Positions 8,199 through 37,842 of a stretch of 64,000 nt of DNA are shown here, in pieces (the stretch's first letter is position 1; each line of letters opens with the position of its first letter). The position numbers were made by a program, and so were the translations under genes. A model generated the notes under the pieces. That model had not been told where the DNA came from. It saw only the letters and a list, made by a program, of their open reading frames with translations, and did no database searches. This stretch comes from Patescibacteria group bacterium (lineage in GTDB: Bacteria; Patescibacteriota; Minisyncoccia; Phycocordibacterales; XYD1-FULL-46-19), in contig JBMCHT010000003.1 in the NCBI GenBank assembly GCA_048617235.1, positions 81,958 to 145,957 on the forward strand, read 5' to 3'.

Positions 8199-8257
8199 AA
8201 AGTTATTCCAAAAAAAGTCTTGCCCTAAAGACCTAATCACCTTTATAATGTTATTTA

Positions 8258-9616: not shown

Positions 9617-9624
9617 TTTTTAAT

Positions 9625-22132: not shown

Positions 22133-22501
22133 TTATCTTGAAGTCCCGACCATAAAAATCAAAGGGGCTTTGGTTTTACGATCACAATCACTACCTCTAA
22201 TACAAATAGAAAACCCTTCATGGGTGCCCAAAACTTGAGCTCCTTCTTTAATCTGACGATATTGATACAAAATACTGACCCCCGGCTGGTAAATAACCTC
22301 ATCCGGCAACCAAGAAGCAGCCGGTTTAAGAGTTAATAAAAAATTATTACTGCAACTGCAATATTTAAGCTCAGTTATTAGACCTCCGAAGGGTTTATTA
22401 CTTACTGCAAACACTAATCCGGTCCCTAAACCCAAAATAATAAATAATAAAAATAAAATTTTAAAAACATTCCGAGATAACATAAATATAATTTTAATCA
22501 A
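22133..22501 (-). CDS. small secreted or membrane Cys-containing hypothetical protein
   Basis: N-terminal hydrophobic helix. Overlaps the upstream ORF by 8 nt (operon). Confidence 0.4.
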   Translation of the reverse strand: MIKIIFMLSRNVFKILFLLFIILGLGTGLVFAVSNKPFGGLITELKYCSCSNNFLLTLKPAASWLPDEVIYQPGVSILYQYRQIKEGAQVLGTHEGFSICIRGSDCDRKTKAPLIFMVGTSR

Positions 22502-23291
22502 TTATTAAATCAAACTCTAAAGCATTACTAAAGCCGGCGCTATTTTCCACATACACCCACATGGGGATTTTTTCCGGCCTATCTATACCCACTAAGTGTT
22601 TTTTATCTATCGATTCTATATCCGCCGCCCAGGGTAAATCAATTGGAAAAGATAAATAATCATCTGAGGTTTCCTGAGCCGGTAAACTAAAAAAAGTAGT
22701 GTGAACTATAACCGGCTCTGCTGTTAGATTTTTTCCATAAACCCTAACTTTGGTTCCCGGTGATCCGAAAGTTGGTTCCAAATTATTTAAAATAATTTTT
22801 TTTGAAACAGATGAAGAACTTTTAGTCTTTGTATTATCTGACAACTCTTTATTACTTTTACTCACCACTTCTTCTTCCAGCGGTTTAGGGGGAACAATCT
22901 CTATACTGTTACTCCGATTAACAACTTGCTGATCACCAAAAACCGTCTTCAATCTATTCCAAGTTAATATATCTACCATCCCTGTCGGATTGAACAAACC
23001 TTGAGGTTTTAAAATATAAGTTGCTTGTTGTCTTTGAAAACGCCGTACCGCCGCTTCTGTTAGAGGGCCATAGTAATTTGTTTCCTGACCGGAAGAACCC
23101 GGGCCAGAGACTGCTAAGCGAGTTACCGAATCCTGATTCAACCACTGTTGTAATTGTTTAACCGAAGTATTTTTATCTCCAAGAGATAAAAAAACATCTG
23201 AAAAAGCATAAGTTAAACCGATTTTTCCTCCCCCCAAGACAATTACTGTCGTCAAGATTATTAAAATTAAAAAAGAAGATAACTTTTTCAT
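22494..23291 (-). CDS. secreted protein with a peptidoglycan-binding (PG_binding_1-like) domain
   Basis: Signal peptide. VKQLQQWL...LAVSGPGSSGQETNYYGPLTEAAVRRFQ fits the PG-binding repeat pattern (D/G-x-FG-x-T-x-x-AV-x-x-FQ). Confidence 0.5.
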   Translation of the reverse strand: MKKLSSFLILIILTTVIVLGGGKIGLTYAFSDVFLSLGDKNTSVKQLQQWLNQDSVTRLAVSGPGSSGQETNYYGPLTEAAVRRFQRQQATYILKPQGLFNPTGMVDILTWNRLKTVFGDQQVVNRSNSIEIVPPKPLEEEVVSKSNKELSDNTKTKSSSSVSKKIILNNLEPTFGSPGTKVRVYGKNLTAEPVIVHTTFFSLPAQETSDDYLSFPIDLPWAADIESIDKKHLVGIDRPEKIPMWVYVENSAGFSNALEFDLIID

Positions 23292-23353: not shown

Positions 23354-24082
23354 ATGATCACTTCTGCCAATAAAAAGATTTTAACAATTATAATTATTGT
23401 AATAATAATTTCCTTTGTCATTTTCTTGTGGTGGTTGGGGGGACGCAATATTGAAACAAAAAACAACCTCTCCGAACCAAACAACCTCAATTTCAGTGAG
23501 ACAGAAATAGAAAAAGCCCAAGAAAGAGAAAAAACTTTATCTTCTTTACTTGAAAATAAAAATAAAGAAAATTTACCAAGCACATCTTTTCCCACTAAAT
23601 CTTTTACAGAAAAAGATTTAAAACAAACTCAAACAAACAGCCAAGATTTTTACCAAGAATATGCCAAAAAAATGACTGAAACAATTTCTCCTTTATCAGA
23701 TTTTGATACTCCTCCGGCTGAAATAATAATAAATGCCATAGAACGAAATGATTTTTCACAAATTGTTTATTTGGAGAAGAGGTTAAAAGTAAATATTGAT
23801 ATGATAAACAATTTACTGGAAATCACTGTTCCGAATGAAGCAATTAAACATCATTTATCTTTAATTAATTCTCTGGTCTATCTTAACCAACCTTTATTTA
23901 ATATGTCTCAAATTGAATCCGATATTGCCAAAGCTTTAACCGGAGCGGAAAGATATCAAAAAGAAATTTTAAAAACTTTTAAAATTATTAATAAATTTAA
24001 TCAATTTTTTAACGATAAAGGAATAACTATAGACAATAATGTGGATAAGCAAACCGAAAGTAATTGGCAAGAGACTAATTAA
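23354..24082 (+). CDS. hypothetical membrane-anchored protein (N-terminal TM); first gene of the T4SS-like block
   Basis: TM helix ILTIIIIVIIISFVIFLWWLGG. No recognisable motifs. Confidence 0.4.
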   Translation: MITSANKKILTIIIIVIIISFVIFLWWLGGRNIETKNNLSEPNNLNFSETEIEKAQEREKTLSSLLENKNKENLPSTSFPTKSFTEKDLKQTQTNSQDFYQEYAKKMTETISPLSDFDTPPAEIIINAIERNDFSQIVYLEKRLKVNIDMINNLLEITVPNEAIKHHLSLINSLVYLNQPLFNMSQIESDIAKALTGAERYQKEILKTFKIINKFNQFFNDKGITIDNNVDKQTESNWQETN

Positions 24083-24114
24083 GTATTAAAATAGATCAAA
24101 GAAGCAATAATTAA

Positions 24115-27100
24115 ATGAAAAATAAATTTTCTCAAACAATTATCTTTTCACTGATAATACTGGTGATTTTAATTCCCTTGCTGGGTTTTGGTTTAAAAAA
24201 ATTATCTGCTTTCCAAACTCAAGCTATACCGGAGCCCGGTTTTGGTGCTGGTTACGATTACCAAACCGAGGTAGACAATCCCAGAGCAGATGACATCAGC
24301 CAACAAGCAGCCGAAGAAGCCAGAGCTCTCCAAGAAAGAACAGAAAACAATGCCTCAGCCTCTCAAGCGGCTGCCAGCAGACTAGCTGAATTGCAACAAC
24401 AAGACCTAGAACAATGTACCGCCGAAGTAACCGGACAAACTCCTCCTCAAGGACCAATGGCAGATACAGTAAATGATTCAGTAGAAGGGGCAATTAATAA
24501 TCATGTGCAAGAAAATTTTCAAGATACTTTTACAGAAGAAATGGATGATACCTTACCCCAAGAAACCCAAAACTTAGTTGAAGAATCTTTTCCTCAAGAG
24601 CTAGATAATGCCACTCAAGAAATACTTCAAGATAACCCCCAAATAGAATTATTAGATGCAGATGATCCGGCTTCAGTTATTGAAAACGGATCTTTGGATT
24701 TTAATCGAGCAGAATTAGATGAAGCCGCAGACGCATATCAAAATTATTTTGGTGACAATTGGCGTGAAGATATTCTAGATGAGGAAAATAGAGCGTCTTT
24801 TACTGAAAATCTATTCGAAGAAACCGTTCAAAGTGTCACTCCAGAAGTTTTTGAACAAGTTTTAACCGATAATTTACCTCAAGTCCTAGAAAACACCATG
24901 GAATCAGCTTTTTCCGAAACCACAGAATCTATTTTTAACCCCGATCAACTAAAAGAAGTATTTACAGATAGAAACTTTCAAAATAACTTAGAGGGAGGAC
25001 TATCTACTGTCGCCTCTGATACCGTCAATGGAGCATTAAGTGGTTTAGAAAACTTAAATGAAAGCGATTTGAGAGAAACCTTGGGTTTACCTGAAAGACC
25101 TCGCGCTGTTAGACCCGTGTCTCAATATGATGAAGATGGTTATTTTACAGGTTATACATATGAAACAGGAGGCTACGAACCCGGCACCAATCTTAATTTA
25201 GACGATATAAGAGAGGTGACAACTCAAAGCATGGAAGATAATATTTCCCAAAATATAACCGACAATTTACTTAAGGATGAAAATTTGACCAATCTATCAA
25301 CCAATATGATGGAATCAATGAATCTAAACAGTGATCAAATAGTAGGTGAAATGCTAGACGGTTTAAGTATGGATGGTTTAACTGAAAACTTAAATTTAGA
25401 CAGTTTAACTGAAAACTTAGATTTAGACAGTTTAAATTTTGATCAGGCTTTTGGTGATATATTAAACGATTTTGATATTGATAGTGTGTTAGACGGTTTT
25501 GATATTGATAATATATTAGGCGATTTTGGTGGCATAGGTGATATTGTTGGTGATTTTTCCAACCAAATAACCGACATGGCCGGAGATGTTTTTGGCGACA
25601 TAACCGGAGACATGATGGGTGATCTTAATGATCTTGGTATTGGCTTAGATTTAGACAGCCTCCCCGGACCTTTAAATGATATAGCCGGTGATATAACCGG
25701 GGGTTTAGATGGGTCTTTACCCGGTGCCGGAGGTTTTGGTGGCGGTGGTAATTATGTACCGGTTAAAGAAGTTGACGGTCCTTTACTGTCCACTACTCAA
25801 GAAATAGATGCCACCACCAAAAGAATGGAACAATTATTAATTCAAATTTGTACTTACCAAAAATCCATCCAAAGAATCCAAACCGCCTTTGAACAAAAAG
25901 AATTTATGGAAGATGTTCAACTTCGTCAATCGGCCAGTGATGAGGTGGAGCGTTATCGTCAGGAAGTTTTTGATCTAACTAATCGCGGTTATGACCCTGA
26001 TGGTCAAGGAGCCGAACAACCGCTATATGTCACCAACTTGGATTCTCACCTCCAGCAAGTTAAAAACGAAACCCGCTCTGTTTATTTAAATCATTTTGGC
26101 CACACTGAAAATGCTTTTGCCGAACAAGTAACAAATGCCATAATGAACAACCCTGATGTCCCGGCTTTACCGGAATCCACCATTACCGTAGATGAATATG
26201 AACGCTTCTTTACCGGTCAAATCGCCGATGCTGAAGAATATCGCCGTATTGCTAGAGAAGTTTATAATCCCTACTTACCCAACACCCCGCAAAGAGCGGT
26301 AGATATGCATTCGGCTTTATATCGTCAAAACTTACAAGAAAAACAAGATCAAGCTGAATTGGAATTTAATACCGGTCAAGGTTATTTGCCTGTCAGAGAA
26401 TGTATTGAACACACCGATGATGGTAGTGCTTGTCTCCACTGGGAAACCATAACTCCGGCCTCTCAAATAGGCGAGCAAATAGCCGATGTTTTGAGTTATC
26501 GCCAAGAAGTTTACACTAATCCTCAAGCCGGAGATATTGTTCCCGGCTCTTCTCCGTCTGAAGCAGAACTTAGAAACTTCAGACCTTCGGCTTCCGGAGG
26601 TAGTAGCAGTGGTAGTAGTGGTGGTAGCAATTCAGCTTCTATGCCGGGATCTTCTATGCCGGGATCTTTTGATATTAATCAAGTGGTTGATATGTTATCT
26701 CAATTTATGTCCGGATTGGAAGGATCAGACCCTGATAGTAGCCCCTCAACCGCCTCCTTAGCTATGGCTAAAGAAATAATAGATGATCAAAATCAAGCGG
26801 TCATCTCTTGGTCCGGAGAAGATGTCAACAGTTGTCAAACAGATAATAATTGGATATCCGGTAATCAATTTACAATGACCGGTTCCGGTGGTATGCAAAG
26901 TTTCTTTGATCATTTTATTATAACCAAAGATGAAGGAGAGGGATTGCCTAATGCCGGTCAGAGTACTATTGACCTGCCTGTATCTTTGGATGTTCGGTTT
27001 GAAGTTATAAGAGCTTCCGGCTCTAATGCCGGAGAAAGGAGAACAATTACCGGGGGAGTAACAACCGATATAATAGATGATATTTATCAAGAAGTAACTT

Positions 27101-27396
27101 TGAATATACCGAGTGTAAATGCCGGGGATGAATTCATTATTTCTTTATTCCCGCATGTTACTAATTATCAAATAAACATAACAGCTTCTAACGGTAATGC
27201 TTCAGATTTGATAAATGAAATAAGAACTGAAATAGATGATATTATAAATAATGAAACTGGAATTTTAAAGAAGAATTTAAGCTTGTTGAATATTGAATAT
27301 AAAACAAATTCAGTAACTCTTTCTCCTAAATTAAAATATGATATAAAATGTCTAGATAATAGCGGTTCAACTATTCAAGATGGTCTAACTTTATAA
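24115..27396 (+). CDS. giant acidic secreted/anchored protein (1093 aa) with Asp/Gly-rich degenerate repeats
   Basis: N-terminal TM/signal. Extremely acidic central region with repeats LDxLTENL and GD(I/V)xGD-type motifs. Cys-poor C-terminal domain. Confidence 0.55.
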   Translation: MKNKFSQTIIFSLIILVILIPLLGFGLKKLSAFQTQAIPEPGFGAGYDYQTEVDNPRADDISQQAAEEARALQERTENNASASQAAASRLAELQQQDLEQCTAEVTGQTPPQGPMADTVNDSVEGAINNHVQENFQDTFTEEMDDTLPQETQNLVEESFPQELDNATQEILQDNPQIELLDADDPASVIENGSLDFNRAELDEAADAYQNYFGDNWREDILDEENRASFTENLFEETVQSVTPEVFEQVLTDNLPQVLENTMESAFSETTESIFNPDQLKEVFTDRNFQNNLEGGLSTVASDTVNGALSGLENLNESDLRETLGLPERPRAVRPVSQYDEDGYFTGYTYETGGYEPGTNLNLDDIREVTTQSMEDNISQNITDNLLKDENLTNLSTNMMESMNLNSDQIVGEMLDGLSMDGLTENLNLDSLTENLDLDSLNFDQAFGDILNDFDIDSVLDGFDIDNILGDFGGIGDIVGDFSNQITDMAGDVFGDITGDMMGDLNDLGIGLDLDSLPGPLNDIAGDITGGLDGSLPGAGGFGGGGNYVPVKEVDGPLLSTTQEIDATTKRMEQLLIQICTYQKSIQRIQTAFEQKEFMEDVQLRQSASDEVERYRQEVFDLTNRGYDPDGQGAEQPLYVTNLDSHLQQVKNETRSVYLNHFGHTENAFAEQVTNAIMNNPDVPALPESTITVDEYERFFTGQIADAEEYRRIAREVYNPYLPNTPQRAVDMHSALYRQNLQEKQDQAELEFNTGQGYLPVRECIEHTDDGSACLHWETITPASQIGEQIADVLSYRQEVYTNPQAGDIVPGSSPSEAELRNFRPSASGGSSSGSSGGSNSASMPGSSMPGSFDINQVVDMLSQFMSGLEGSDPDSSPSTASLAMAKEIIDDQNQAVISWSGEDVNSCQTDNNWISGNQFTMTGSGGMQSFFDHFIITKDEGEGLPNAGQSTIDLPVSLDVRFEVIRASGSNAGERRTITGGVTTDIIDDIYQEVTLNIPSVNAGDEFIISLFPHVTNYQINITASNGNASDLINEIRTEIDDIINNETGILKKNLSLLNIEYKTNSVTLSPKLKYDIKCLDNSGSTIQDGLTL

Positions 27397-27404
27397 AAAC
27401 ACTC

Positions 27405-30400
27405 ATGCTTATAACTCATAAAAAAAAGTTTATTATTACATCTTTATTGATTGTTTTTTTTGTTGTTTTATTGATTAATCCTAAAGAAACAATAGCCACT
27501 GAAGAAGAATTTTCAGATAGATATGAAAATTGTGTTAATTCCCTCGTCGATACGAGCAGGCCTCCTGATGATGATTTAGAGTCACAAATAAACTGGCTGA
27601 AAGAGCGATCTGCTTTCTATTTGGAAAAAAGTTTTGAAATTGAACCACAATTAGAAGAAATGAGAGAAAATTCTGATAATACTTTCCTAAGGCCTACTTT
27701 TGTTTGTGCTTTTGATACTGATGGCTTATGTGATTACGAGCCCAGAGATTTTTTAAACGCATCAGTTGAAACCATAGAAGGAACATTATCAAATTCTTAT
27801 ATAATATCTTTTCCTAATGGAGACTCTATAGAAACTTCCGGTAGATACTGGAATTACAACGAGTGGTTCCAAAAATCTTCAGATTATCAAAGTCTTAGAG
27901 CAGAAAGAAGTCGTTTTAATGCTCTTTCGTCCGAAATACTTCAATGTGTAAGCTTGGGAGAAACTGCTTTAAATTATGAAAATTTAAATCCAGAAGAAAT
28001 AGATGAAACAGAAGAAGAATTAATTGAACTGGAAAATTATGCTGAACAAGAAAGGAGAGAATCTTCAAACACAAGCAGGGCTCAAATAGAAAGACTGGAT
28101 GCATCTAGATTAGATATTGATAAAAGTTGGTTTTGTTTAGGGCACGGTAATATCATCGGTTTTGATTTTGGAGATCCTGTTTGTTATATAGAGCTTTTCA
28201 CTATGCTATTTGAAGTTATAAGAGATATGGTGGTTAGCATTTTAACAGAAATAATATCTCCTTTTTACGATACGGTTATCCATCATTCAGTGATAGAAAT
28301 AACCCAATTTTTAGACACTGATTCTGCAAATCAAGTCTGGATAGCTGTTAGAGATGTCGCTAATTTATTTTTTATATTTATTCTTTTATATGTTTCTTTT
28401 AGTATAACCTTACAAATAGGAGGGGCTAATGACAAACGGCTTATAGCTATGGTTATTATCATAGCTTTATTAATTAATTTTAGTGCCGCCCTTACCAAAG
28501 TAGCTATAGACGCCTCTAATATAACAGCTTTACATTTTTTGGAACAAATAGATGAAGATGGGGAGGTAGGAACAAGACTGCAGATAACCAGTAAATTTAG
28601 TACATTAAGCGCAAGTCAACTACCAGGTGGAGATAATCAAATAGAAAGAGAAGCTGCTTGGAAAAGATTAATGGCTACTGTTGCTAATATAGTCTTCGCT
28701 TTTATTTTAATAATTGCTCTTTTAGTGGGCTCTTTCTTATATTTATGGAGAGTTGTCATATTTTTAATATTAATTGTAGCTTCTCCTTTGGCGTTTGTAG
28801 GCTTTGCTTTACCTAAAATAAAGACCATGATTACAGACAAATGGCTGTCTCAACTGTTTTGTTGGTGTGCTTTCGCTCCAATATCTATGTTCTTTTTGTG
28901 GGCTAGTTTTACTTTAGCAGAAGGCACTAATCTGGAAGGGGGTTTTTTTGAATTAATGATTCATTTCTTTATTATTTGCGCCCTGGTTATCGGCTCGTTT
29001 GTTATGTCTCAAATATTATCCTGTTCCGGATCAAGCTCCATAGCCGGACGAGGAGTTGGAGCATTAAATTATACCAAAGACAAAGCTGCAACCGGCTTAA
29101 AACATGGAGCAGGAAAAACTGCCAAGTGGGCTGCTACCAGTGATACCAAAAAATATGGAGGTAAACTGGCTAATCGCATAGGTGGATTAAAAGACACAGG
29201 CTATGATATGCAGAAATCAGACAGTAGAACCAAGCGTGTATTAGGGCGAGCCTCAGAGTGGGTAGGTGATAAAGGTCAAAAAATAGCAGATAAAACAGGC
29301 CAAACTAAAGTACAAGAAAGCAAAGTAAAAAGAGCAACAGAAGTAATAAATAAAGGAGAAAATGCTGATGAAAAAGCTCGGACCTTTAATAGGTTGAACA
29401 AAATTACAGGAGCCGTCGGAATGAATAGATTAACTCAAGCCGATTGGGTGGCCAATCAATCTGGACAACAATTAGCTGAACTTGCCAATTCTATTAAAGA
29501 CCTAAAAACAAAAGAAGATTTTAGAGGAAACTTGGATAAATTACTGGCTCGAGATCCGGAAAAGAAAAAAGAATTTTTGGAAGCTTTACCTAAAGAGCAA
29601 GAAAAATCGGCTACTAAAGTTAAACCGGGAGAATTAAATAAAGAAACCGAAATTGAAAGAAATAGAGAAGCCGGTCAACAACGAGCTGCGAATGTTCTAG
29701 CTTTATCAAATGATAAAAAAGGAGAAGAGCCCAGCGAGAGACAAAAAGTTTTAGCAGAAATAGACACTGAAACCTTAGCCAATATGTTAAATAGTACCGA
29801 CAATGAAGCAGATTACCAACAACTTATAGATGATTTAAATCAGACATTAGATCCTCAAAAAATGGAGAGAGTTTTCGAAGAGATGGCTAAAGATTTAAGT
29901 AAAACTTTAAATGCTATTTCTTTTATTTCTGATCCGAATAAAAAAGAAGAATTAATGACAACAGAACTGGGAAGAGTTGGTAAAATGGATATCAATTACC
30001 AACAACAAGCCTATAACAAAACAGATGAATTAACCAGAGATGGCATCAGAGAAGCTGTCATCAGTGGAATGGCCGTAGCTGGAGTCAATATAAAAGATTT
30101 AGACCAAAAACTTCCAAAAGACAAACAAGAAAAAGAAAAAACCATAGAAAGATTAGAAGCTGAGGATAACCTTAAAAATTCAGATGCAAATACTTCCGAA
30201 GAAGATATTAAGAAATATTTAGATACCTTAACCACAGACATGAAAGTAAACTTACCGGATGAAGTTCTTAAAAAAGAAAGAGTGGTAGCCAATTTAGATA
30301 TAGCCACTATTAATAAATTAACTCAAGCTTCAAAAACACCTGATTTATTGAGAGAAATTGGTAAGGTGGTAGAAGAATTAAAAAGAAAAAAGGATCCTAA

Positions 30401-30698
30401 AGGTGATGCTTTATGGGGATCTATGAAGAGTATGACAACACAATCAATGTTTTTCAGTCACAACGATACAGGAAACACCGGTGGAGAATCCAGCCAAACA
30501 TCTAACCCACCCTCCCAAACATCTAACCAATCTACCTTAAAAGAAGATCCAAATTCATTTGAAGCAACTAAAAGAGAAAAACAAGAAAAAAGCGGAGTAT
30601 CAGAAGAAGATGAAGAAGAAGCAAATCAAAGGTTGAAAAAACTCCGAAGAGAAATGAGAAATAATAATAATAATAATAATAATAATAATCAACAATAA
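27405..30698 (+). CDS. VirB6/TrbL-like polytopic membrane protein with a large N-terminal extracytoplasmic domain and a long charged C-terminal tail ending in poly-Asn
   Basis: Signal/TM at the N-terminus. Block of ~6-7 hydrophobic helices at aa ~300-540. ~550-aa K/E-rich hydrophilic tail. Architecture resembles PrgH/TcpH/VirB6-type proteins. Placed 2 genes upstream of the PrgI-like and VirB4-like genes. Confidence 0.45.
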   Translation: MLITHKKKFIITSLLIVFFVVLLINPKETIATEEEFSDRYENCVNSLVDTSRPPDDDLESQINWLKERSAFYLEKSFEIEPQLEEMRENSDNTFLRPTFVCAFDTDGLCDYEPRDFLNASVETIEGTLSNSYIISFPNGDSIETSGRYWNYNEWFQKSSDYQSLRAERSRFNALSSEILQCVSLGETALNYENLNPEEIDETEEELIELENYAEQERRESSNTSRAQIERLDASRLDIDKSWFCLGHGNIIGFDFGDPVCYIELFTMLFEVIRDMVVSILTEIISPFYDTVIHHSVIEITQFLDTDSANQVWIAVRDVANLFFIFILLYVSFSITLQIGGANDKRLIAMVIIIALLINFSAALTKVAIDASNITALHFLEQIDEDGEVGTRLQITSKFSTLSASQLPGGDNQIEREAAWKRLMATVANIVFAFILIIALLVGSFLYLWRVVIFLILIVASPLAFVGFALPKIKTMITDKWLSQLFCWCAFAPISMFFLWASFTLAEGTNLEGGFFELMIHFFIICALVIGSFVMSQILSCSGSSSIAGRGVGALNYTKDKAATGLKHGAGKTAKWAATSDTKKYGGKLANRIGGLKDTGYDMQKSDSRTKRVLGRASEWVGDKGQKIADKTGQTKVQESKVKRATEVINKGENADEKARTFNRLNKITGAVGMNRLTQADWVANQSGQQLAELANSIKDLKTKEDFRGNLDKLLARDPEKKKEFLEALPKEQEKSATKVKPGELNKETEIERNREAGQQRAANVLALSNDKKGEEPSERQKVLAEIDTETLANMLNSTDNEADYQQLIDDLNQTLDPQKMERVFEEMAKDLSKTLNAISFISDPNKKEELMTTELGRVGKMDINYQQQAYNKTDELTRDGIREAVISGMAVAGVNIKDLDQKLPKDKQEKEKTIERLEAEDNLKNSDANTSEEDIKKYLDTLTTDMKVNLPDEVLKKERVVANLDIATINKLTQASKTPDLLREIGKVVEELKRKKDPKGDALWGSMKSMTTQSMFFSHNDTGNTGGESSQTSNPPSQTSNQSTLKEDPNSFEATKREKQEKSGVSEEDEEEANQRLKKLRREMRNNNNNNNNNNQQ
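30661..30690 (+). repeat. (AAT)10 microsatellite encoding the C-terminal poly-Asn of the VirB6-like protein
   Basis: aataataataataataataataataataat read directly. Confidence 0.9.
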
Positions 30699-30700
30699 AC

Positions 30701-31195
30701 ATGCCTTTAACCCCCGAAATAATTCAAGAAAAAACCAAAGACTTACCGGAAAAAGTCAAAGAGGCTTTCTTTTCTTCAGAAACCAGTAAAACTATTCGTG
30801 AAGTAGGTCAAAAAAACAATCTTCATATAGATCAAATAGGAATATTGGCAGATTTAACCGGACAAGTTTTATTAGGAATATTGCCGGTAAGTAGTTTTAC
30901 TCGACATCTTTCCAATTACTTGCATATAGATACCGAAACGGCTAAATTTATGGCCATTGAAATAAATGAAAAGATATTTTTACCTATCAGAGAAGATTTA
31001 AAGAAAGTTAATATTTCTAAAAAAGAAGACACTGAGCCGGAAAAGAAAAAAGCGGATTCGCCACCGCCTCCACCAACTACGGAAAAAACCGAAGAAAAAG
31101 AAACTATTAAAAAAGATTTGTATCAAGACAGAAAATCCGAATTAAGTGGTAGTATAGATAATGTAGATGATCCTTATCGAGAACCAATAGAATAA
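30701..31195 (+). CDS. hypothetical hydrophilic protein with a Pro-rich segment, in the T4SS-like operon
   Basis: Tight spacing (2 nt after the upstream stop). No TM segment. PPPPTTEKTEEKE. Confidence 0.4.
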   Translation: MPLTPEIIQEKTKDLPEKVKEAFFSSETSKTIREVGQKNNLHIDQIGILADLTGQVLLGILPVSSFTRHLSNYLHIDTETAKFMAIEINEKIFLPIREDLKKVNISKKEDTEPEKKKADSPPPPPTTEKTEEKETIKKDLYQDRKSELSGSIDNVDDPYREPIE

Positions 31196-31199
31196 AAAT

Positions 31200-31628
31200 A
31201 TGCGCTTTCAAGTTCCACAATTTATAGATATTGAAGATAAAATTTTCGGACCTTTATCTTTTAAGCAATTTATTTACATAGCCGGGGGAGCCGGGGGAGC
31301 TTATTTATCTTTTCAAATACTACCCCCTATTATTAATATATTGTTTGTAGTTGTATTCGGTGGTTTGGGTCTGGCTTTGGCTTTTTATAAAGTAAACGAG
31401 CGTCCTTTAATCTTAATAATTCAATCAGCTATCAAACATTTTTTAAACAGTAAATTGTATTTATGGGAAAAGAAAAAACCCTCTGTTCCTCAAAAACAAG
31501 AAAAAGAGGAAGGGTCTGAAGTAAAACAAGAAATTTTACCTAAAATGTCCAAAAGTAAATTAGAAGATTTATCTTGGAGTTTAGATGTTAAACAAAAACC
31601 TGAAGAACCGGAGAATGAAGCCCTGTAA
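31200..31628 (+). CDS. PrgI-family (VirB3-like) small membrane protein
   Basis: N-terminus RFQVPQFIDIEDKIFGPLSFKQFIYI follows the PrgI pattern (KVP-x-DL-x-EDRI-x-x-LS-x-RQ), followed by two TM helices. It lies immediately upstream of the VirB4 homolog. Confidence 0.5.
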   Translation: MRFQVPQFIDIEDKIFGPLSFKQFIYIAGGAGGAYLSFQILPPIINILFVVVFGGLGLALAFYKVNERPLILIIQSAIKHFLNSKLYLWEKKKPSVPQKQEKEEGSEVKQEILPKMSKSKLEDLSWSLDVKQKPEEPENEAL

Positions 31629-31664
31629 ATTTTCCTCAACTACTATAATTAAAGAAAGGCTCGG

Positions 31665-32339
31665 TTGTGTTATAATAAGATTATGTTGAATATTAATTCC
31701 AAACCAACTCAAGATTTTTTATCCATAAAAGCTATTAGAAATGACTTGGTTATTATGAAAGATAATAGTTATCGTGCTGTTTTACTAACCACCGCCACTA
31801 ACTTTGCTTTAAAATCTGATGATGAACAAATTGCTATTATCTCTCAGTATCAGAACTTTCTCAATTCTTTGGATTTTTCCATACAAATTTTTATTCAATC
31901 TCGAAGATTAGATATTAATCCCTATTTAATGACCATTAAAAAATTACAAAAAAACCAGACTAATGAATTACTAAAAATACAAACCAAAGAATATATAGAT
32001 TTTATTAAAACTTTCGTAGAAAACTCCAATATTATGTCTAAAAGTTTTTTTGTGGTTATTCCATATTATAGTACAGTTGCTTCCGATAGCGGATCTTTTT
32101 TAAGTAACACTCTCCCTTTTTTAAAACAAAAAGATGAAGGCAAGAAAAAAATGGAAACCGAAGAATATCAAGCGCAAGTAGAACAAAGAATAGGAGTAGT
32201 GGAGCAAGGTTTATCTAGAACCGGTATTAAATCAAGCCGTTTAGGTACAGAGGAATTAATAGAATTATATTTCAAAATATTTAATCCCGGAGAACAAGGA
32301 TTACCTTCTATGGATAATTTGCAACAAGCTAAAAAGTAA
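31665..32339 (+). CDS. VirB4/TrbE-family ATPase, N-terminal segment (split from the ATPase body by a frame change)
   Basis: IKAIRNDLVIMKDNSYRAVLLTTATNFALKSDDEQIAIISQYQNFLNSLDFSIQIFIQSRRLD matches the start of Gram-positive-type VirB4/PrgJ/TrsE. Ends TAA 32337-32339, immediately after an A5 run. Confidence 0.5.
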   Translation: MCYNKIMLNINSKPTQDFLSIKAIRNDLVIMKDNSYRAVLLTTATNFALKSDDEQIAIISQYQNFLNSLDFSIQIFIQSRRLDINPYLMTIKKLQKNQTNELLKIQTKEYIDFIKTFVENSNIMSKSFFVVIPYYSTVASDSGSFLSNTLPFLKQKDEGKKKMETEEYQAQVEQRIGVVEQGLSRTGIKSSRLGTEELIELYFKIFNPGEQGLPSMDNLQQAKK

Positions 32340-32344
32340 GCAAT

Positions 32345-34153
32345 ATGTGGCCTTTTACTAACAAAACAAAAGAAAAAGAGTTAACCGCTTTCTTGCCGAC
32401 AGATATTTATCAAGCCGGGATAATGGAGTTAAAAGATATTATTGCTCCATCGGCTTTAAAAATAAACAGCAACAATTTAAATCTGGGAGATAAAATTGCT
32501 AAAACTTTTTTTGTTATTTCTTACCCTCGCTTTTTAAATGAAGGTTGGTTTTCTCCTATTATTAATATGGATAGAGTTTTTGATATCTCTATTTTTATCC
32601 ATCCTATAGATTCGGCGGTAGCTTTGAAACAATTACAAAAAAAATTAGCCGAAGTTCAAAGCCAAATAAATACAAAAATGGAAAAAGGCTTTGTTCGTGA
32701 TCCAATTTTAGATACCTCTCAACAAGATATTGAATCCCTAAGAGACCAATTACAACAAGCTGAAGAAAAAATATTCAATGTTGGAGTCTACATCACTATT
32801 TATGGTCAAAATAAACAAGACTTATTTGAAGCCGAGTCTGAAATAAAATCAACCTTAGATTCTCAATTAATATATATTAAACCGGCTTTATTCCAACAAG
32901 GAGAAGGTTTTAGAAGTGTTATTCCTTTAGCTCAAGATGAACTAAAAATACATACTAAACTAAATTCCAATCCTTTATCTAGTTTATTTCCTTTTATTTC
33001 TTTTGACTTAACTTCTAATAAAGGAATTTTATTCGGCACCAACCGACACAACTCTTCTTTAGTGTTATTTGATCGCTTTTCCTTAGCAAACTATAACTCA
33101 GTCACCTTTGCCAAGTCCGGTAGTGGTAAGTCTTACACCACTAAATTGGAAATCTTAAGAAGTTTAATGTATGACACCGATGTTATTGTGATAGACCCCG
33201 AAAGAGAATATGAATTTTTATCTGAAGCTGTCGGAGGTAGATATTTTAATATTTCCTTAACTTCCGAACACCATATTAATCCTTTCGATTTACCACCACC
33301 CGGAGAAGATGAATCACCGGGAGATATTTTAAGAGGTAATATAATCAACTTAGTTGGTTTATTTAGAATAATGCTTGGCGGTTTAAATTCTGAAGAAGAT
33401 TCAATTATAGACAAAGCTATCACTGAAACTTATGCTTTAAAAGACATCACTTCCGATAATGATTTTTCTAACAAACCAACTCCATTATTATCCGACCTGG
33501 AATTAGTTTTGGCCGGTATGGAAGGAGGAGAGTCTTTGGCTCAAAGATTAACCAAATATACTCAAGGTACCTGGTCGGGCTTTCTAAACAAACCTACCAA
33601 TGTGGATATTAATAAAAATTTTGTGGTATTTTCCGTTAGAGATATGGAAGACGAATTAAAACCGGCGGTTATGTATATTGTAATGCACCATATCTGGAAT
33701 ACAGTCAGGCGAAATATTAGAAAACGTCTTTTAGTGGTTGATGAAGCCTGGTGGATGATGAAATCCGAGGATACGGCTTCTTTTTTGTACTCTTTAGTTA
33801 AAAGAGGTCGAAAATATTATTTAGGCACCGCCACTATCACTCAAGATGTAGGAGATTTCTTGCGCTCACCTTACGGTACCCCGATTATTACCAACTCTTC
33901 TTTGTATTTTTTATTAAAACAGTCTCCGGCTTCCATAGATTTGGTTCAAAAAACTTTCAATTTAACTGATGAAGAAAAATATCTTTTATTGGAATCAAAT
34001 ATTGGAGAGGGGATATTCTTTGCCGGTTTAAAAAGAGTGGCTCTTAAAGTTATTGCCTCTTATACTGAAGATCAAATAATAACTTCCGACCCTTCAGAAT
34101 TATTAAATATTAAAAAAGCCAAACAGGAATTGGAAATGGATGCAGAAAAATAA
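32345..34153 (+). CDS. VirB4/TrbE/CagE-family type IV secretion ATPase (C-terminal 602 aa)
   Basis: Walker A FAKSGSGKSYTT, Walker B LLVVDEAWWMM (the DEAW signature of VirB4/TraC). Conserved VirB4 N-proximal block IAPSALKIN...FVISYPRF. Confidence 0.7.
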   Translation: MWPFTNKTKEKELTAFLPTDIYQAGIMELKDIIAPSALKINSNNLNLGDKIAKTFFVISYPRFLNEGWFSPIINMDRVFDISIFIHPIDSAVALKQLQKKLAEVQSQINTKMEKGFVRDPILDTSQQDIESLRDQLQQAEEKIFNVGVYITIYGQNKQDLFEAESEIKSTLDSQLIYIKPALFQQGEGFRSVIPLAQDELKIHTKLNSNPLSSLFPFISFDLTSNKGILFGTNRHNSSLVLFDRFSLANYNSVTFAKSGSGKSYTTKLEILRSLMYDTDVIVIDPEREYEFLSEAVGGRYFNISLTSEHHINPFDLPPPGEDESPGDILRGNIINLVGLFRIMLGGLNSEEDSIIDKAITETYALKDITSDNDFSNKPTPLLSDLELVLAGMEGGESLAQRLTKYTQGTWSGFLNKPTNVDINKNFVVFSVRDMEDELKPAVMYIVMHHIWNTVRRNIRKRLLVVDEAWWMMKSEDTASFLYSLVKRGRKYYLGTATITQDVGDFLRSPYGTPIITNSSLYFLLKQSPASIDLVQKTFNLTDEEKYLLLESNIGEGIFFAGLKRVALKVIASYTEDQIITSDPSELLNIKKAKQELEMDAEK

Positions 34154-34174
34154 AAAATATTTTAAAATAATAAT

Positions 34175-35164
34175 ATGTCTTCTTTTTTAAAAACTCTTCT
34201 CCTTGCAATAATTTTGGTTTCTCCTGTTGTAATTGAGGCCAGATTATTGGATTCTTCAGGAGGGAGCATAGTTCCTGTTTTTAAACCGAAAAATCCCGGA
34301 CCCAATCAAGAAATAATAATAACTCTGGATGGTTACGGTTATAATATAAATCGTAGTTTAATTAGATGGGAAGAAAACAATAATGTATTAAAAGAAGGGG
34401 TAGGAGAAAAACAACTTAATTTTACCACTGGAGCAATCGGCTCTAAACATTTCATTAATGTAACTATTTTAACCGATACCGGCCGACAAGTTACCGGTCA
34501 AATATTATTGGATCCGGCTGAAGTAGATATGGTTTGGGAAGGGTTGACTGTTAATCGCCCAAATTATCAAGGAGGTAATTTAGCTTTAGATGGGGGAGAG
34601 GTAAGAGTGGTGGCTATACCTCAGATGACTGATTCTCAAGGTCAATTAATGGCAAATGATGAATTATTATATGAATGGCGAATTGATGGCCAAAAAGTAA
34701 TAAACATAGATAATAAACAAAAATATTTAGATGTTCGTTTAAGAATAGACAGGCCAATAAGAGTTAGGGTAACCGTTACCAACCCGGTAACCGAAACTAA
34801 AACTAGTAATTTACTTATTTTAAGATCCAAACAAAAACCGGTTTTAGCGATTTATGAAGTTAAACCTTTAATGGGACCTATCTACAACCGAGGAATAAGA
34901 AATATTTTTGAAATAGATTCACCAGAAACTGTTTTAAAAGCCGAGCTTTATCACTTACCACCTGATATTAGTAACAAAATAAGATTTAACTGGCTAATGG
35001 AAGATAAAAAGATAGCCAGCTCCGGCTCTGGTGGGGAATTATTAGGAATAGAAGCTCCTGCCACCTTAAGTGAATCTATACCCATAACAGTTGAAGCCCT
35101 CTTTCCGGAAGGAAATAATATTACAAAAAGTTTTATGATTAAACCCCAAGTAATAGATTTTTAA
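34175..35164 (+). CDS. secreted hypothetical protein (signal peptide, beta-rich)
   Basis: Signal peptide MSSFLKTLLLAIILVSPVVIEA. No recognisable motifs. Confidence 0.4.
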   Translation: MSSFLKTLLLAIILVSPVVIEARLLDSSGGSIVPVFKPKNPGPNQEIIITLDGYGYNINRSLIRWEENNNVLKEGVGEKQLNFTTGAIGSKHFINVTILTDTGRQVTGQILLDPAEVDMVWEGLTVNRPNYQGGNLALDGGEVRVVAIPQMTDSQGQLMANDELLYEWRIDGQKVINIDNKQKYLDVRLRIDRPIRVRVTVTNPVTETKTSNLLILRSKQKPVLAIYEVKPLMGPIYNRGIRNIFEIDSPETVLKAELYHLPPDISNKIRFNWLMEDKKIASSGSGGELLGIEAPATLSESIPITVEALFPEGNNITKSFMIKPQVIDF

Positions 35165-35167
35165 GTT

Positions 35168-36019
35168 ATGAATTTTTTATCTACAGAAAAAGCTTTGGCT
35201 CAAGTGGTTAGTAGATACCAATTATTAGAACAGACAATTGTCGGTGAGACGGTTTCTAGCTTTCCTGAATATTTGAGTCAAATTTATACTGTTTTTTTAA
35301 CTGTAGTTACTGTTTTAGCGGTTTTAATTTTAGTTTATGGTGGGATTGAATATTCAATTAGTGAAGCTTTTAGTACTAAAGAAAATGCTAAAAAAAGAAT
35401 GCAATCAGCTTTATTTGGTTTACTTTTGGCTTTATCTTCGGCTTTACTCTTACAAACTATTAATCCGGAATTATTGAATCTGGAAATTGAAATGGAAGCC
35501 TTGGATCCGGTAGGGAGTGGACAGTCTGCAGTTACAGACGGTAGTAATCCTGAATTTCAATCAGAACCTAACCCTCAGGCTCCAATAGAATCGTCAGGAG
35601 ATATACAAAAAGATATTTATAATGCAGCCAAAGCATATGAAAATAGTAGTACCAGTGCAGGACCAGGAAATGGCGTCGTAGCTTGCGCTTGGGCAGTAAA
35701 TAATGTTATCACAAAAGCCGGCTACCAATCGGTTAATGGTGATGCAGTTAAAAGCATGAAATCAGTATTAGACGGTAGTAGAGGGCAAGAAATAAATAAA
35801 AGTGAAGCTAGGCCTGGTGATATTGCTATAGTAACCGATGCTCCTTCAAAAGAGAGTGGCAAATTAGGAAATCATGTTGGGATATGTACAGATAATGGAT
35901 GTAATCGTGTTTTATCCAATTCAAGCAGTAGAGCTCAGTTTGATTACACAGGTGGATTTGGTTTTCCTGAAGCTTATAATGAAGGTGGTAATGAGTATGT
36001 TTATAGATTAAATAATTAA
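35168..36019 (+). CDS. membrane-anchored (helical hairpin) CHAP/NlpC-P60-like peptidoglycan hydrolase; VirB1-like functional slot
   Basis: Two hydrophobic helices (IYTVFLTVVTVLAVLILVYGG; ALFGLLLALSSALLLQTI). C-terminal domain with candidate catalytic Cys (VVACAWAVNNV) and His (GNHVGICTDNG) spaced as in CHAP domains. Confidence 0.5.
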   Translation: MNFLSTEKALAQVVSRYQLLEQTIVGETVSSFPEYLSQIYTVFLTVVTVLAVLILVYGGIEYSISEAFSTKENAKKRMQSALFGLLLALSSALLLQTINPELLNLEIEMEALDPVGSGQSAVTDGSNPEFQSEPNPQAPIESSGDIQKDIYNAAKAYENSSTSAGPGNGVVACAWAVNNVITKAGYQSVNGDAVKSMKSVLDGSRGQEINKSEARPGDIAIVTDAPSKESGKLGNHVGICTDNGCNRVLSNSSSRAQFDYTGGFGFPEAYNEGGNEYVYRLNN

Positions 36020-36030
36020 ATTATTATTTT

Positions 36031-36531
36031 ATGAAAAACCAAAATTATATATATTATATTATACTGGGGATTTTGATTATTGTTGCCGGTATTGTCTTAG
36101 GTATAATAAATAACTCAAAAAAAGAACCGGAAATAATTACTCCTCCGGAAACTACAAACAATAATGATATAGAAACCGACAATAATGGACAAGAAATAGT
36201 TGAATTAAATAAAGATGAAAAAGAAGAAATGGTTCAACAAATTAAAGAACAAATTAAAAAAGATTTTAATTTGGAAAATAATATAGAAGAAGAAAACAAT
36301 CAAGATGATTTTATTTTAGAAGAGACTTTTATTTCCTTCCCTTATGCTGTACAAATTTGGACGACAGAACATACAGGAGGATTTGTTGTTCTAAAATTTT
36401 CTGAAACAAATAATGAGTGGACTTCTTTAGATTCAGACGGTGGAGCTCCATATACTCAATATTTAATGGACTTTTATAATATACCACAAAAAAATGCCGA
36501 AGATTTGGTTAATAAAATTTATAATTTATAA
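36031..36531 (+). CDS. hypothetical N-terminally anchored membrane protein
   Basis: TM helix YIYYIILGILIIVAGIVLGII. Acidic linker. Confidence 0.4.
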   Translation: MKNQNYIYYIILGILIIVAGIVLGIINNSKKEPEIITPPETTNNNDIETDNNGQEIVELNKDEKEEMVQQIKEQIKKDFNLENNIEEENNQDDFILEETFISFPYAVQIWTTEHTGGFVVLKFSETNNEWTSLDSDGGAPYTQYLMDFYNIPQKNAEDLVNKIYNL

Positions 36532-36534
36532 AAT

Positions 36535-37842
36535 ATGAAAATAACAACCGGGGATATATTAAAATATTTAATAATCACTATTATTTTCTTAATGCTTTTT
36601 GTTTTAGGATTTTTAATGTCCGGCTTATTAACTAAAAACGGAGAGAAACAAGAAACTAAAAAAGAAAATCTTTTCCCGGAAGGAGGAGAATCTGTAAATA
36701 CTCAAACCGACACCCCTTCTTTTAATAATATATCAACAATGGAAGATTCTGATGATTTAAATGGAGAAGATCCAGAACTTGAAGAAGATGATCTTGTTTC
36801 TAATCAAATAATCACCTTTAAACCTTTATTAATAGAAGACAAATTATCTGTTTTATATATAAGTCAAACTGACGGACATATTTATTTAGTAAAAAATATA
36901 AACTTAATAAAAGATAATAAAATTAACAATCTTGAAAAAATATTAATTTCCAATAAAACTTTTAAAGATATTATTTCCGCTTATTGGGTTATAAATAATA
37001 ATCAAATAACTGCTATATTAAATGATAAAAATAATAGTTATTCTTTAACTTTTAGTTTAAATGATCTTGAAGAAGAAGAAGAAGAAGAAATAGAAAATAA
37101 TAACGAAATAGAGGTTATTAAAAGAAATCTGCCAATAAAAATATTGGAGGTAAAAGATTTGGGAGGACAAATTTTTGTTTTATCTAATCAATTAAGAGAA
37201 GATGATCAAAAAATAACTAATATTAAGGGTACAGTTGGTTATTTAGTAGATTCTGATTTAAATGATTGGCAAACAATTTTTATTTCAGATCATAAAACTT
37301 TAACTCTAAATCCAGGAAAACAAACAAATAATATTTATATTCAAAACAAACCTTCTAATCAATTTCCCAGTTTTCTTTATAGGGTGGATTTAGATACCGG
37401 AGTATTACAAAAAATAATGGGGGATATTTTAGGAGGAGTTTTTTTAGTTAATCCCAATGGCACTAAAGTTTTATATAATGAAAAAACTAACAATTCTTTT
37501 GATTTAAAAATATTTAATTTAAAAAACAAAAACAATAAAAACTTAGGTTTTAAAACTTTGATTGAAAAATGTTTTTGGGTGGATGAATCTAATTTTTATT
37601 GTGCTGCTCCTGAAAATATATACTTAAATAACAACTATCCGGATGTTTGGTATATAGGGGAAATACCAACCGAAGATAGTTTGTTATATAAATATAATTT
37701 AGAACAGGAATCATTTAACACCAGTAGATATTGGAATAATCAAAAAAATGTATTTAATTTAGATATAGATAATCAAAATAATATTTTATTTTATCAAGAT
37801 ATGATGAATAAAAATCTATATTTATTTAATATTTTGTTCTGA
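36535..37842 (+). CDS. hypothetical N-terminally anchored membrane protein with an Asn-rich beta-rich ectodomain
   Basis: TM helix LKYLIITIIFLMLFVLGFLMSGLL. EEEEEEEE stretch. Last gene of the block before yidC (opposite strand). Confidence 0.4.
   Translation: MKITTGDILKYLIITIIFLMLFVLGFLMSGLLTKNGEKQETKKENLFPEGGESVNTQTDTPSFNNISTMEDSDDLNGEDPELEEDDLVSNQIITFKPLLIEDKLSVLYISQTDGHIYLVKNINLIKDNKINNLEKILISNKTFKDIISAYWVINNNQITAILNDKNNSYSLTFSLNDLEEEEEEEIENNNEIEVIKRNLPIKILEVKDLGGQIFVLSNQLREDDQKITNIKGTVGYLVDSDLNDWQTIFISDHKTLTLNPGKQTNNIYIQNKPSNQFPSFLYRVDLDTGVLQKIMGDILGGVFLVNPNGTKVLYNEKTNNSFDLKIFNLKNKNNKNLGFKTLIEKCFWVDESNFYCAAPENIYLNNNYPDVWYIGEIPTEDSLLYKYNLEQESFNTSRYWNNQKNVFNLDIDNQNNILFYQDMMNKNLYLFNILF

Follow-up and report, generated by a model that had tools for sequence, protein, structure and literature searches.

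The 64,000-nt stretch analysed here, referred to as the window, belongs to contig JBMCHT010000003.1 of the Patescibacteria assembly GCA_048617235.1, and at positions 23354-37842 (+) it carries a block of 11 co-oriented open reading frames (ORFs) that follow each other at distances of 2-36 nt. In block order, the encoded proteins comprise 242, 1093, 1097, 164, 142, 224, 602, 329, 283, 166 and 435 aa. An earlier interpretation made from the DNA letters (the sequence-only reading) had correctly described the common orientation and tight packing of these genes, but its count of ten was too low. Judged from the protein families it encodes, the block is a monoderm-type (MPF_FATA-related) type IV secretion system (T4SS). 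Upstream of it are found uvrD, rsmA/ksgA, a DUF192 gene and a PG_binding_1 gene, while yidC, rnpA, dnaA and dnaN are situated downstream, with the start of dnaA 1.3 kb past the block and the 3' end of the last block gene overlapping the convergent yidC by 21 nt. The flanking rsmA and yidC/rnpA/dnaA genes had been named before, to which dnaN is now added on the downstream side.

Components of the block and their conservation

A VirB4 scan of species-representative genomes delivered at least 584 confirmed relatives, the best 80 of which are called the 80 loci in the following. These best 80 relatives, which show 71-79% identity, all belong to metagenome-assembled genomes of the candidate phyla radiation and are labelled Paceibacterota, Parcubacteria, Kaiserbacteria, Nomurabacteria, Taylorbacteria, Minisyncoccia and others; many of the records carry the depositor label 'Saccharibacteria'. 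In tblastn and blastp searches the 80 loci displayed a near-constant gene order, beginning with uvrD-rsmA-[variable genes]-VirB6-like-D164-PrgI-TrsD-VirB4 and continuing from VirB4 with H329-pilin-K435-yidC(-)-rnpA(-)-dnaA-dnaN, in which D164, H329 and K435 denote the block proteins of 164, 329 and 435 aa. The synteny comparison proposed along with the sequence-only reading thus revealed that the arrangement uvrD-rsmA-[block]-yidC-rnpA-dnaA-dnaN recurs in most of the 80 genomes. The locus is an ordinary representative of the Paceibacteria, and proteins identical to its H329 and K435 are deposited at NCBI as ACOCU8_02725 and ACOCU8_02740 ('Patescibacteria group bacterium'). Specific for the present lineage are the very long B1093 (1093 aa) and VirB6-like proteins, the 166-aa protein J166, a coupling protein encoded nearby and a CHAP-like tail on the pilin.

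The VirB4 ATPase core (602 aa, 32345-34153, +) is assigned to NCBIfam NF045971 (CD1110 family) with 373.8 bits against a cut-off of 325, matches in addition PF19044 (P-loop_TraG), PF12846 (AAA_10) and PF01935 (DUF87), and contains the Walker A motif AKSGSGKS as well as the Walker B motif LLVVDEAW, in agreement with the previously postulated VirB4 ATPase with a DEAW Walker B. It is 26% identical to PrgJ of pCF10 over 568 aa (E 1e-44), and the alignment begins at PrgJ residue 216. The preceding gene (TrsD-type, 224 aa, 31665-32339, +), which ends 5 nt 5' of virB4, encodes a protein matching NF045975 (E 4.9e-10, model positions 99-245 of 894) and the TrsD model NF041427 (E 5.4e-4), both below the curated cut-offs, and it covers positions 2-134 of the CD1110 VirB4 model (E 1.1e-4). 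Since the short ORF matches the N-terminus of VirB4 models and the ATPase aligns from PrgJ residue 216 onwards, VirB4 is split into two genes. According to these profile matches the 224-aa ORF is a TrsD-type protein, i.e. the detached N-terminal domain of VirB4, and it is kept as a separate ORF in 79/80 loci with a median length of 214 aa. The sequence-only reading had missed this split, which is shown by NF045975, NF041427 and the PrgJ alignment. It had, on the other hand, rightly assigned the membrane protein encoded in front of TrsD (142 aa, 31200-31628, +) to the PrgI family (VirB3-like), because PF12666 is matched with 35.4 bits at a gathering score of 27; PrgI was detected in 77/80 loci with a median identity of 46%. 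Support from profile searches is consequently not restricted to VirB4, as PrgI (PF12666) and the pilin (PF18895, see below) also exceed the curated thresholds.

The 1097-aa protein (27405-30698, +) possesses an N-terminal signal or transmembrane (TM) segment, an outer domain of approximately 290 aa, six predicted TM helices between residues 318 and 535, and a hydrophilic, charged C-terminal tail of approximately 560 aa that ends in poly-Asn. The NCBIfam model for the CD3337/EF1877 mobilome membrane protein matched residues 413-557 (E 2.4e-4), the TrbL/VirB6 family PF04610 was found in 5/56 of its orthologues (best E 2.6e-4), and the alignment of its family with pCF10 PrgH by hhalign, spanning residues 440-540 versus PrgH 146-264, obtained a probability of 42% and an E-value of 2.6e-4. 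Moreover, the gene is located two genes 5' of prgI-virB4, much as prgH in pCF10, and its product was detected in 60-61/80 loci. A search of the family profile against PDB sequences yielded coiled-coil noise from the C-terminal tail only. Because the three weak signals overlap in one TM region (413-557), together with the gene position and the extended architecture, the 1097-aa protein is a probable VirB6 channel protein of the 'extended VirB6' type, an architecture described in a recent review (PMC12857230). Hence, the polytopic nature claimed before is supported by the six predicted TM helices, while the proposed VirB6/TrbL/PrgH likeness rests on homology signals that are weak but consistent. 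The end of the gene harbours an (AAT)n run at 30650-30690 encoding poly-Asn and then QQ, and this simple-sequence tract could differ in length among strains.

Six further components accompany the recognisable T4SS proteins, namely five associated with the envelope (A242, B1093, H329, J166 and K435) and the small protein D164, and all of them except J166 are conserved at the class level. The operon starts with A242 (23354-24082, +), a protein with one N-terminal hydrophobic segment serving as anchor or signal and no Pfam or NCBIfam family. It is followed by B1093 (24115-27396, +), for which no family match was found in Pfam, NCBIfam or PHROGs. The sequence-only reading had called the latter an acidic secreted protein, which fits its pI of 4.05, its D+E content of 17.6% and its single N-terminal hydrophobic segment; we regard it as a surface or secreted protein. 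By BLAST both proteins seem to be lineage-specific, with B1093 relatives seen by tblastn in 5 loci only, but iterated hidden Markov models (HMMs) detected relatives in 53-54 loci, always in the upstream slot. In the case of A242 these were present in 53/80 loci and all started 5.8-9.9 kb upstream of virB4, while B1093 relatives occupied the same slot in 54/80. The alignment occupancy of B1093 reaches 0.75-0.82 at residues 751-850 only, and the remainder is hypervariable. Almost every locus encodes a protein of 230-350 aa followed by one of mostly 320-1150 aa in these two slots, and nearly all of these positional equivalents have one N-terminal hydrophobic segment, which speaks for two hypervariable surface proteins at constant positions in the operon. 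The profile of the A242 family revealed nothing significant when compared with the VirB8-like pCF10 proteins PrgL and PrgD and with all PDB chains.

In D164 (30701-31195, +), an N-terminal domain of approximately 100 aa is joined through a linker rich in Pro, Lys and Glu to the near-invariant motif DPYRE at the C-terminus; D157, P158 and Y159 do not vary among 49 sequences, at least 90% of which keep E161. Its orthologues are located between the VirB6-like gene and prgI in 58/80 loci, and relatives were found neither in Pfam nor in the PDB. The DPYRE motif comes after a proline-rich linker and resembles a docking peptide. The conserved protein H329 (34175-35164, +), which is secreted or anchored, comprises three tandem Ig-like beta-sandwich domains. 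K435 (36535-37842, +), the last gene ahead of yidC in 57-59/80 loci, codes for a protein in which an N-terminal TM helix precedes a probable beta-propeller of the TolB-like (PD40-type) kind; its family profile matched TolB beta-propeller chains of the PDB (E 1.1e-5 to 5e-4) at profile positions 193-316, and C346 and C356 are invariant. An AF2 model of K435 made from a 2-sequence alignment reached a pLDDT of 46.6 and was unusable for a fold search. The three conserved orphans, i.e. the protein with three Ig-like domains (H329), the membrane-anchored TolB-like propeller (K435) and D164, are unannotated in published HMM surveys. The sixth component, J166 (36031-36531, +), is very acidic, has an N-terminal TM segment and matched no family; BLAST and iterated HMM searches found no homologue in the 80 genome loci, and its first 132 nt are present with 83-96% identity on contig L163 of a close strain. 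Homologous-protein searches started with the fast-evolving block proteins returned few matches (3, 21 and 2), and a PHROGs scan of ten orphan proteins gave nothing useful.

A pilin joined to a CHAP-like hydrolase domain

The second gene 3' of virB4 (35168-36019, +) encodes the sole pilin-domain ORF of the window, a 283-aa fusion of a pilin hairpin (residues ~29-103), an acidic, Pro-rich linker (~104-145) and a CHAP/NlpC-P60-like Cys-His domain (~146-283). The N-terminal half is recognised by the T4SS_pilin family PF18895 (31.6 bits at a gathering score of 26.6, residues 29-97), and its hairpin is built from TM segments 42-60 and 80-98 with a K/R-rich loop in between. On account of the K/R residues in this loop, the predicted location of the C-terminal enzyme domain is outside the membrane. 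The CHAP family PF05257 scored 20.2 bits (E 8.6e-4), under its gathering score of 26. The closest annotated relative of the tail is a domain of a 968-aa cyanophage protein named 'endolysin / GPD' (30% identity, 97% of length, E 1e-8), whose gene adjoins a tail-protein gene. A 4-sequence alignment comprising the window fusion, two pilin-tail homologues and the phage lysin domain shows no variation at Cys173 (ACAW), His236 (NHVG), a downstream Asn or a PGD motif. Hence, the membrane-anchored CHAP hydrolase claimed by the sequence-only reading stands as far as the Cys/His domain with its conserved catalytic residues is concerned, while its N-terminal half is a PF18895 pilin and the CHAP match is sub-threshold.

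Comparison with the close strain represented by contig L163 showed DNA identities of 93-100% from the end of H329 through hairpin and linker, which fall to 48-82% across the CHAP-like domain only (35639-35998) and return to 83-96% in the next gene. At the protein level one difference exists within the first 147 residues, and the tail is approximately 58% identical with the catalytic residues kept. The fusion tail is thus a local hot spot of recombination or diversifying selection between two close strains. In related loci a single pilin ORF is likewise the rule, with one in 65 and two in 5. The 64 orthologues at the pilin position vary between 104 and 593 aa; in 42/64 the hairpin is followed by a tail of 100 aa or more, 16/64 are plain pilins of 104-166 aa, and the hairpin is matched by PF18895 in 52/64 and by TrbC/VirB2 PF04956 in 5. 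When the 44 tails with a length of 80 aa or more were clustered by BLAST, 31 clusters resulted, and the recognisable tail domains are NlpC/P60 (4), Peptidase_M15_4 (2), YkuD (2), VanY and Amidase_5, with CHAP in the window protein. An exhaustive search with the hairpin only retrieved 12,389 representative relatives at E <=1e-3. Among the best 150 of these 12,389, 50 are plain pilins, 62 extend beyond the hairpin by a C-terminal tail of 100 aa or more, 17 carry N-terminal extensions, and 31, among them the database proteins P0026-P0044, have 2-7 pilin domains in tandem, a fraction that is inflated, because multi-domain proteins rank high on summed score. One example, P0037, combines 7 pilin domains in one polypeptide of 1046 aa, and such tandem-pilin polyproteins suggest processing outside the membrane. 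A Pfam scan of 69 extended hairpin relatives identified, apart from a few DUF or membrane-type matches, peptidoglycan enzymes only, namely NlpC/P60, YkuD, YkuD_2, VanY, SLT, M15_3 and Amidase_5. Pilin-enzyme fusions recur with many unrelated tails. No description of them was found in the searchable literature, which does not prove that none exists; a fast-diverging hydrolase domain on a T4SS pilin is apparently an unreported detail.

For this gene alone, we give a slightly less than even chance to the explanation that the PF18895 hairpin is simply a two-helix anchor for a VirB1/PrgK-like hydrolase acting on the symbiont's own wall, which would imply that no enzyme-bearing pilus is made. Monoderm T4SSs need a membrane-anchored hydrolase encoded right 3' of virB4, e.g. 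PrgK of pCF10, and every recognisable tail represents a peptidoglycan enzyme. Some Patescibacteria are reported to parasitise archaea, which are devoid of peptidoglycan, and this also favours an own-wall enzyme. Furthermore, a survey tied VirB1 homologues to virB4 specifically in Paceibacteria (PMC12102498). However, the hairpin family fits pilin models (PF18895 in 52/64, PF04956 in 5) and is dissimilar to the N-terminus of PrgK, with no similarity detected to pCF10 PrgK, PrgF or PrgG, and a quarter of the orthologues at the same position are plain short pilins. The at least 31 unrelated tail clusters together with the strain-level divergence hot spot are unexpected for a housekeeping wall enzyme, and the nearest relative with an annotation is a tail-associated phage lysin, an enzyme attacking its target cell from outside. 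A more far-reaching idea, which we put forward as tentative and rather unlikely, is that in this class the T4SS pilin represents a modular scaffold, whose conserved VirB2-like hairpin exports fast-changing C-terminal domains and displays them or sets them free after cleavage; in the window this would be a CHAP-like hydrolase, and in other genomes NlpC/P60, M15/VanY, YkuD, SLT, Amidase_5 and numerous domains of no recognised type. The polyproteins with 2-7 pilin domains hint that processing at the outer membrane face belongs to such a scheme. If this were true, the pilus or stalk itself would carry enzymes that breach the host wall, and the turnover of tails would track host range. With regard to the enzyme domain, an opening of the symbiont's own wall in the role of VirB1/PrgK is somewhat more likely than breaching of the host wall. 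In any case, the pilin-enzyme fusion provides a concrete handle on how the T4SS of an episymbiont crosses one or two cell walls.

Surroundings of the block and the question of mobility

Outside the block, the window encodes a VirD4-like coupling protein (T4CP, 789 aa, 15175-17544, -) 5.8 kb upstream, which had escaped the sequence-only reading. It matches PF02534 (T4SS-DNA_transf; 35.1 bits at a gathering score of 20.1) and PF10412 (27.6 bits at a gathering score of 20.5), as well as NCBIfam CD1115 below the cut-off (E 6.8e-11), and it is composed of an N-terminal TM segment, an N-terminal domain of approximately 370 aa and a P-loop ATPase with intact GQTGTGKS and YIDEF motifs; the protein is divergent, and BLASTP found no similarity to PcfC of pCF10. 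Full-length relatives with 40-54% identity were found in 80 metagenome loci, but the gene adjoins the T4SS locus in only 2/41 metagenome loci larger than 15 kb (L081 and L094), and its proximity in the present genome is therefore lineage-specific. A 179-aa tail-anchored ORF (17541-18080, -) overlaps and precedes the T4CP gene, and a protein with Peptidase_M23 and LysM domains is encoded downstream of it (13938-14906, -); L081 and L094 show this trio of 179-aa-type ORF, T4CP and M23-LysM protein again. A role as VirB1-type partner is conceivable for the M23/LysM protein; a survey listed M23 and LysM domains among the VirB1 matches (PMC12102498).

The T4CP at this distance, a tyrosine recombinase at 4013-4927 (-) and the origin of the components from monoderm conjugation systems, visible in the CD1110-type VirB4 and the pCF10-like gene order, would be in line with a conjugative element, or with what is left of a decayed integrative and conjugative element (ICE), that integrated near the origin by chance. 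This explanation is extremely improbable when the distribution of the locus is considered, because the block and both flanks are syntenic across most of the 80 genomes with VirB4 proteins 71-79% identical, which indicates vertical inheritance. Neither a MOB-type relaxase nor an ICE-type integrase was found among the scanned window ORFs of at least 100 aa (5 short ORFs were unscanned). The block is not flanked by a tRNA gene, all six of the window being located far from it, and it is not bounded by att-like repeats; the direct repeats that were found are AT-rich chance matches. The recombinase, the sole one in the window, lies 19 kb from the block, scores as XerC/XerD-like below the cut-offs of those models and is probably a housekeeping enzyme. 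It adjoins a cluster of four tRNA genes (745-2413, -). The GC content of the block (0.32-0.37, with 0.25 in the final 1.8 kb) is inside the range of the window, and relaxases were identified in 103/3,035 genomes of a 2025 survey (PMC12102498). An ICE or conjugative element was thus rejected on the basis of synteny and the lack of att repeats, a flanking tRNA and, among the scanned window ORFs, a relaxase. These results agree with the earlier statements that relaxase and integrase genes do not flank the block and that it is a resident apparatus rather than a conjugative element, given the uvrD-to-dnaN neighbourhood shared by most of the 80 genomes. Collectively, our data make it highly probable that the block is a chromosomal, vertically inherited T4SS of a Patescibacterium of the Paceibacteria/Parcubacteria class, an MPF_FATA derivative which has lost its relaxase link and is located beside replication-origin genes.

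Some other features of the window were registered. The PG_binding_1 protein (22494-23291, -) is encoded divergently from the T4SS operon; tblastn detected a relative in 10 of the related loci, and where its position is listed, it occupies this slot. The promoter and terminator scan yielded counts no higher than chance. Two adjacent Lys/Glu-rich coiled-coil ORFs (8258-9616 and 9625-11178, +) cause an AT skew of 0.495 at 8001-10000; the second one contains a TM segment and a long TDTDTQE repeat, and the pair belongs to no Pfam family, with a weak TolA-like low-complexity match only. A PilB-type assembly ATPase of type IV pili (T2SSE, 386.7 bits) is encoded at 47401-49146 (-) between ruvB and tsaE, and no other recognisable type IV pilus genes are among its immediate neighbours. 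Finally, the PNPase gene (6042-8198, +; two RNase_PH domains, KH and S1) encodes an enzyme that a 2026 preprint highlighted within the host-RNA-feeding metabolism which it proposes for this phylum (bioRxiv 10.64898/2026.06.21.733656).

Possible function and relation to known systems

Related systems have been analysed in other Patescibacteria. Wang et al. (2023) found by transposon sequencing that SEML1_0006-0019 are essential for the epibiotic growth of Southlakia epibionticum, a locus for which pilins were noted while coupling and relaxase proteins were not recognisable (PMC10633639). In a preprint, tubular structures, possibly T4SS pili, were described to penetrate the host envelope in the cultured Microgenomatia strain OT8, which acquires host RNA (bioRxiv 10.64898/2026.06.21.733656), and a 2025 FEMS review considered the systems as a new T4SS type with a speculated pilus conduit (PMC12857230). 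Because the Southlakia T4SS is essential for epibiotic growth and OT8 forms tube-like connections to its host, the most likely function, by analogy, would be the transfer of macromolecules supporting host-dependent growth and not conjugation. In the cytoplasmic membrane, PrgI and the VirB6-like channel might form the docking site of the TrsD/VirB4 ATPase, which could drive the assembly of a tube or stalk made of pilin that crosses the symbiont's own wall toward the host cell. The pilin hairpin would be inserted with both ends outside and the K/R-rich loop in the cytoplasm, so that its CHAP-like domain might cut peptidoglycan outside the membrane at the assembly site, either in the own wall or in that of the host. 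The Ig-like, propeller and hypervariable proteins possibly build or decorate the extracellular part and contact the host, while the T4CP may feed substrates. Such a machine would move macromolecules between host and episymbiont instead of mediating conjugation.

A DNA-uptake machine comparable to Helicobacter ComB or archaeal Ced, feeding the symbiont with nucleotides or genes, is an improbable alternative, for which some arguments exist nevertheless. The system is relaxase-less yet includes VirB4 and a T4CP-like ATPase, and Patescibacteria are devoid of nucleotide synthesis. In the ABY1 class the locus is found near comF, recG and radA (PMC12102498). Matches of VirB4 to CedB (E 3.7e-12) and of the T4CP to CedD (E 4.8e-5) were obtained as well; however, they are weak and far below the cut-offs, with 45.7 bits against 700 for CedB and 22.2 bits against 600 for CedD. 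Moreover, competence of Southlakia needs ComEC, and the comEC mutant is viable while the T4SS is still essential (PMC12857230); competence and T4SS are therefore separable. No competence genes were found next to the block within the window.

Several points weigh against the proposed transfer machine in a resident T4SS. The VirB6 homology is weak, as the 1097-aa protein itself has no Pfam match and the hhalign probability is just 42%, a VirB8-like component was not found by the A242 family searches against PrgL, PrgD and the PDB, and the CHAP assignment is sub-threshold in Pfam with no PDB sequence match for the tail. Membership in the Patescibacteria VirB4 clade is deduced from HMM score and identity ranking. 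The negative result for relaxases covers the scanned ORFs of the window, and other parts of the genome could encode one; with a T4CP present, DNA transfer is still a formal possibility. In addition, pilus formation, substrate and essentiality are all transferred, by analogy, from Saccharimonadia and Microgenomatia. The T4SS is nearly universal in the ultrasmall Patescibacteria, which make up a large share of bacterial diversity, and essential in the single genetically tractable species, and its importance is already recognised in the literature. The new contributions of our analysis are a class-level parts list for Paceibacteria with three conserved components assigned by fold or motif, the constant position of two hypervariable surface proteins, and the frequent fusion of the pilin to diverse peptidoglycan enzymes, with the enzyme domain diverging strongly between close strains.

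In comparison with the Prg/Pcf conjugation system of the Enterococcus faecalis plasmid pCF10, the MPF_FATA prototype, the block shares the order probable VirB6 (PrgH), VirB3 (PrgI), VirB4 (PrgJ) and cell-wall hydrolase (PrgK), and both VirB4 proteins belong to NCBIfam CD1110. Unlike pCF10, the window lacks the relaxase PcfG, the accessory factors PcfB/PcfF and a PrgB match, a VirB8-like PrgL or PrgD was not detected with the A242 family profile, its VirB4 is split, its T4CP is not PcfC-like by BLASTP, and the locus is not mobile. The pilin resembles the VirB2/TrbC pilins of diderm bacteria in its two hydrophobic helices with a basic loop, and some orthologues match PF04956, but it differs from them by its length of 283 aa, of which linker and enzyme domain make up the C-terminal 180, and a recognisable cleavable leader was not identified. 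The tail recalls phage virion-associated peptidoglycan hydrolases, being 30% identical to the domain of the cyanophage tail/baseplate protein 'endolysin/GPD'. By analogy, a certain likeness also exists to polymorphic effectors with their conserved delivery domain and variable C-terminal enzyme: in the pilin family a conserved N-terminal module is combined with many unrelated C-terminal domains, and identity drops sharply where the two meet. Unlike in such effectors, no immunity gene or toxin-type domain was identified, and the delivery module is a T4SS pilin.

The closest relationship is that to the T4SS of the Patescibacteria. Quinonero-Coronel et al. (2025) defined a Patescibacteria-specific VirB4 clade nested in MPF_FATA, which is present in 2,407/3,035 genomes and accompanied by TrsD, PrgI/VirB3, VirB6 and VirB2-like pilins detected with PF18895, with almost no relaxases; the T4CPs are mostly distant from virB4 (148/5,713 within 14 genes of it), and in Paceibacteria and Microgenomatia the T4SS is located near dnaA, dnaN, rnpA, ksgA and rpmH (PMC12102498). 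Similarly, the window locus is chromosomal, relaxase-less in the window and situated beside dnaA, dnaN, rnpA and ksgA, and it combines an MPF_FATA-type VirB4 with a separate TrsD, PrgI/VirB3, a PF18895 pilin and a probable VirB6-like protein. Even the order PrgI, TrsD-VirB4-x-VirB2 is that of the Paceibacteria genome RAAC4_OD1_1, in which genes 534-537 are listed as TrsD, VirB4, an unannotated gene and VirB2, with PrgI just before (Table S3 of PMC12102498). Unlike Saccharimonadia and Microgenomatia with their arrays of 2-11 pilins (PMC12102498), the window has one pilin gene; further differences are the CHAP-like domain on this pilin and a T4CP gene no more than 14 genes away from virB4. The accounts of the Patescibacteria T4SS that we examined make no mention of the Ig-like, propeller and DPYRE proteins. 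Since components, order and position match the published T4SS, the system is already known, and the claim of the sequence-only reading to an undescribed system gives way to the descriptions in PMC10633639, PMC12102498 and PMC12857230. Hence, the locus adds one more instance of a known system, in which the pilin fusions and the three orphan components are worth following up.

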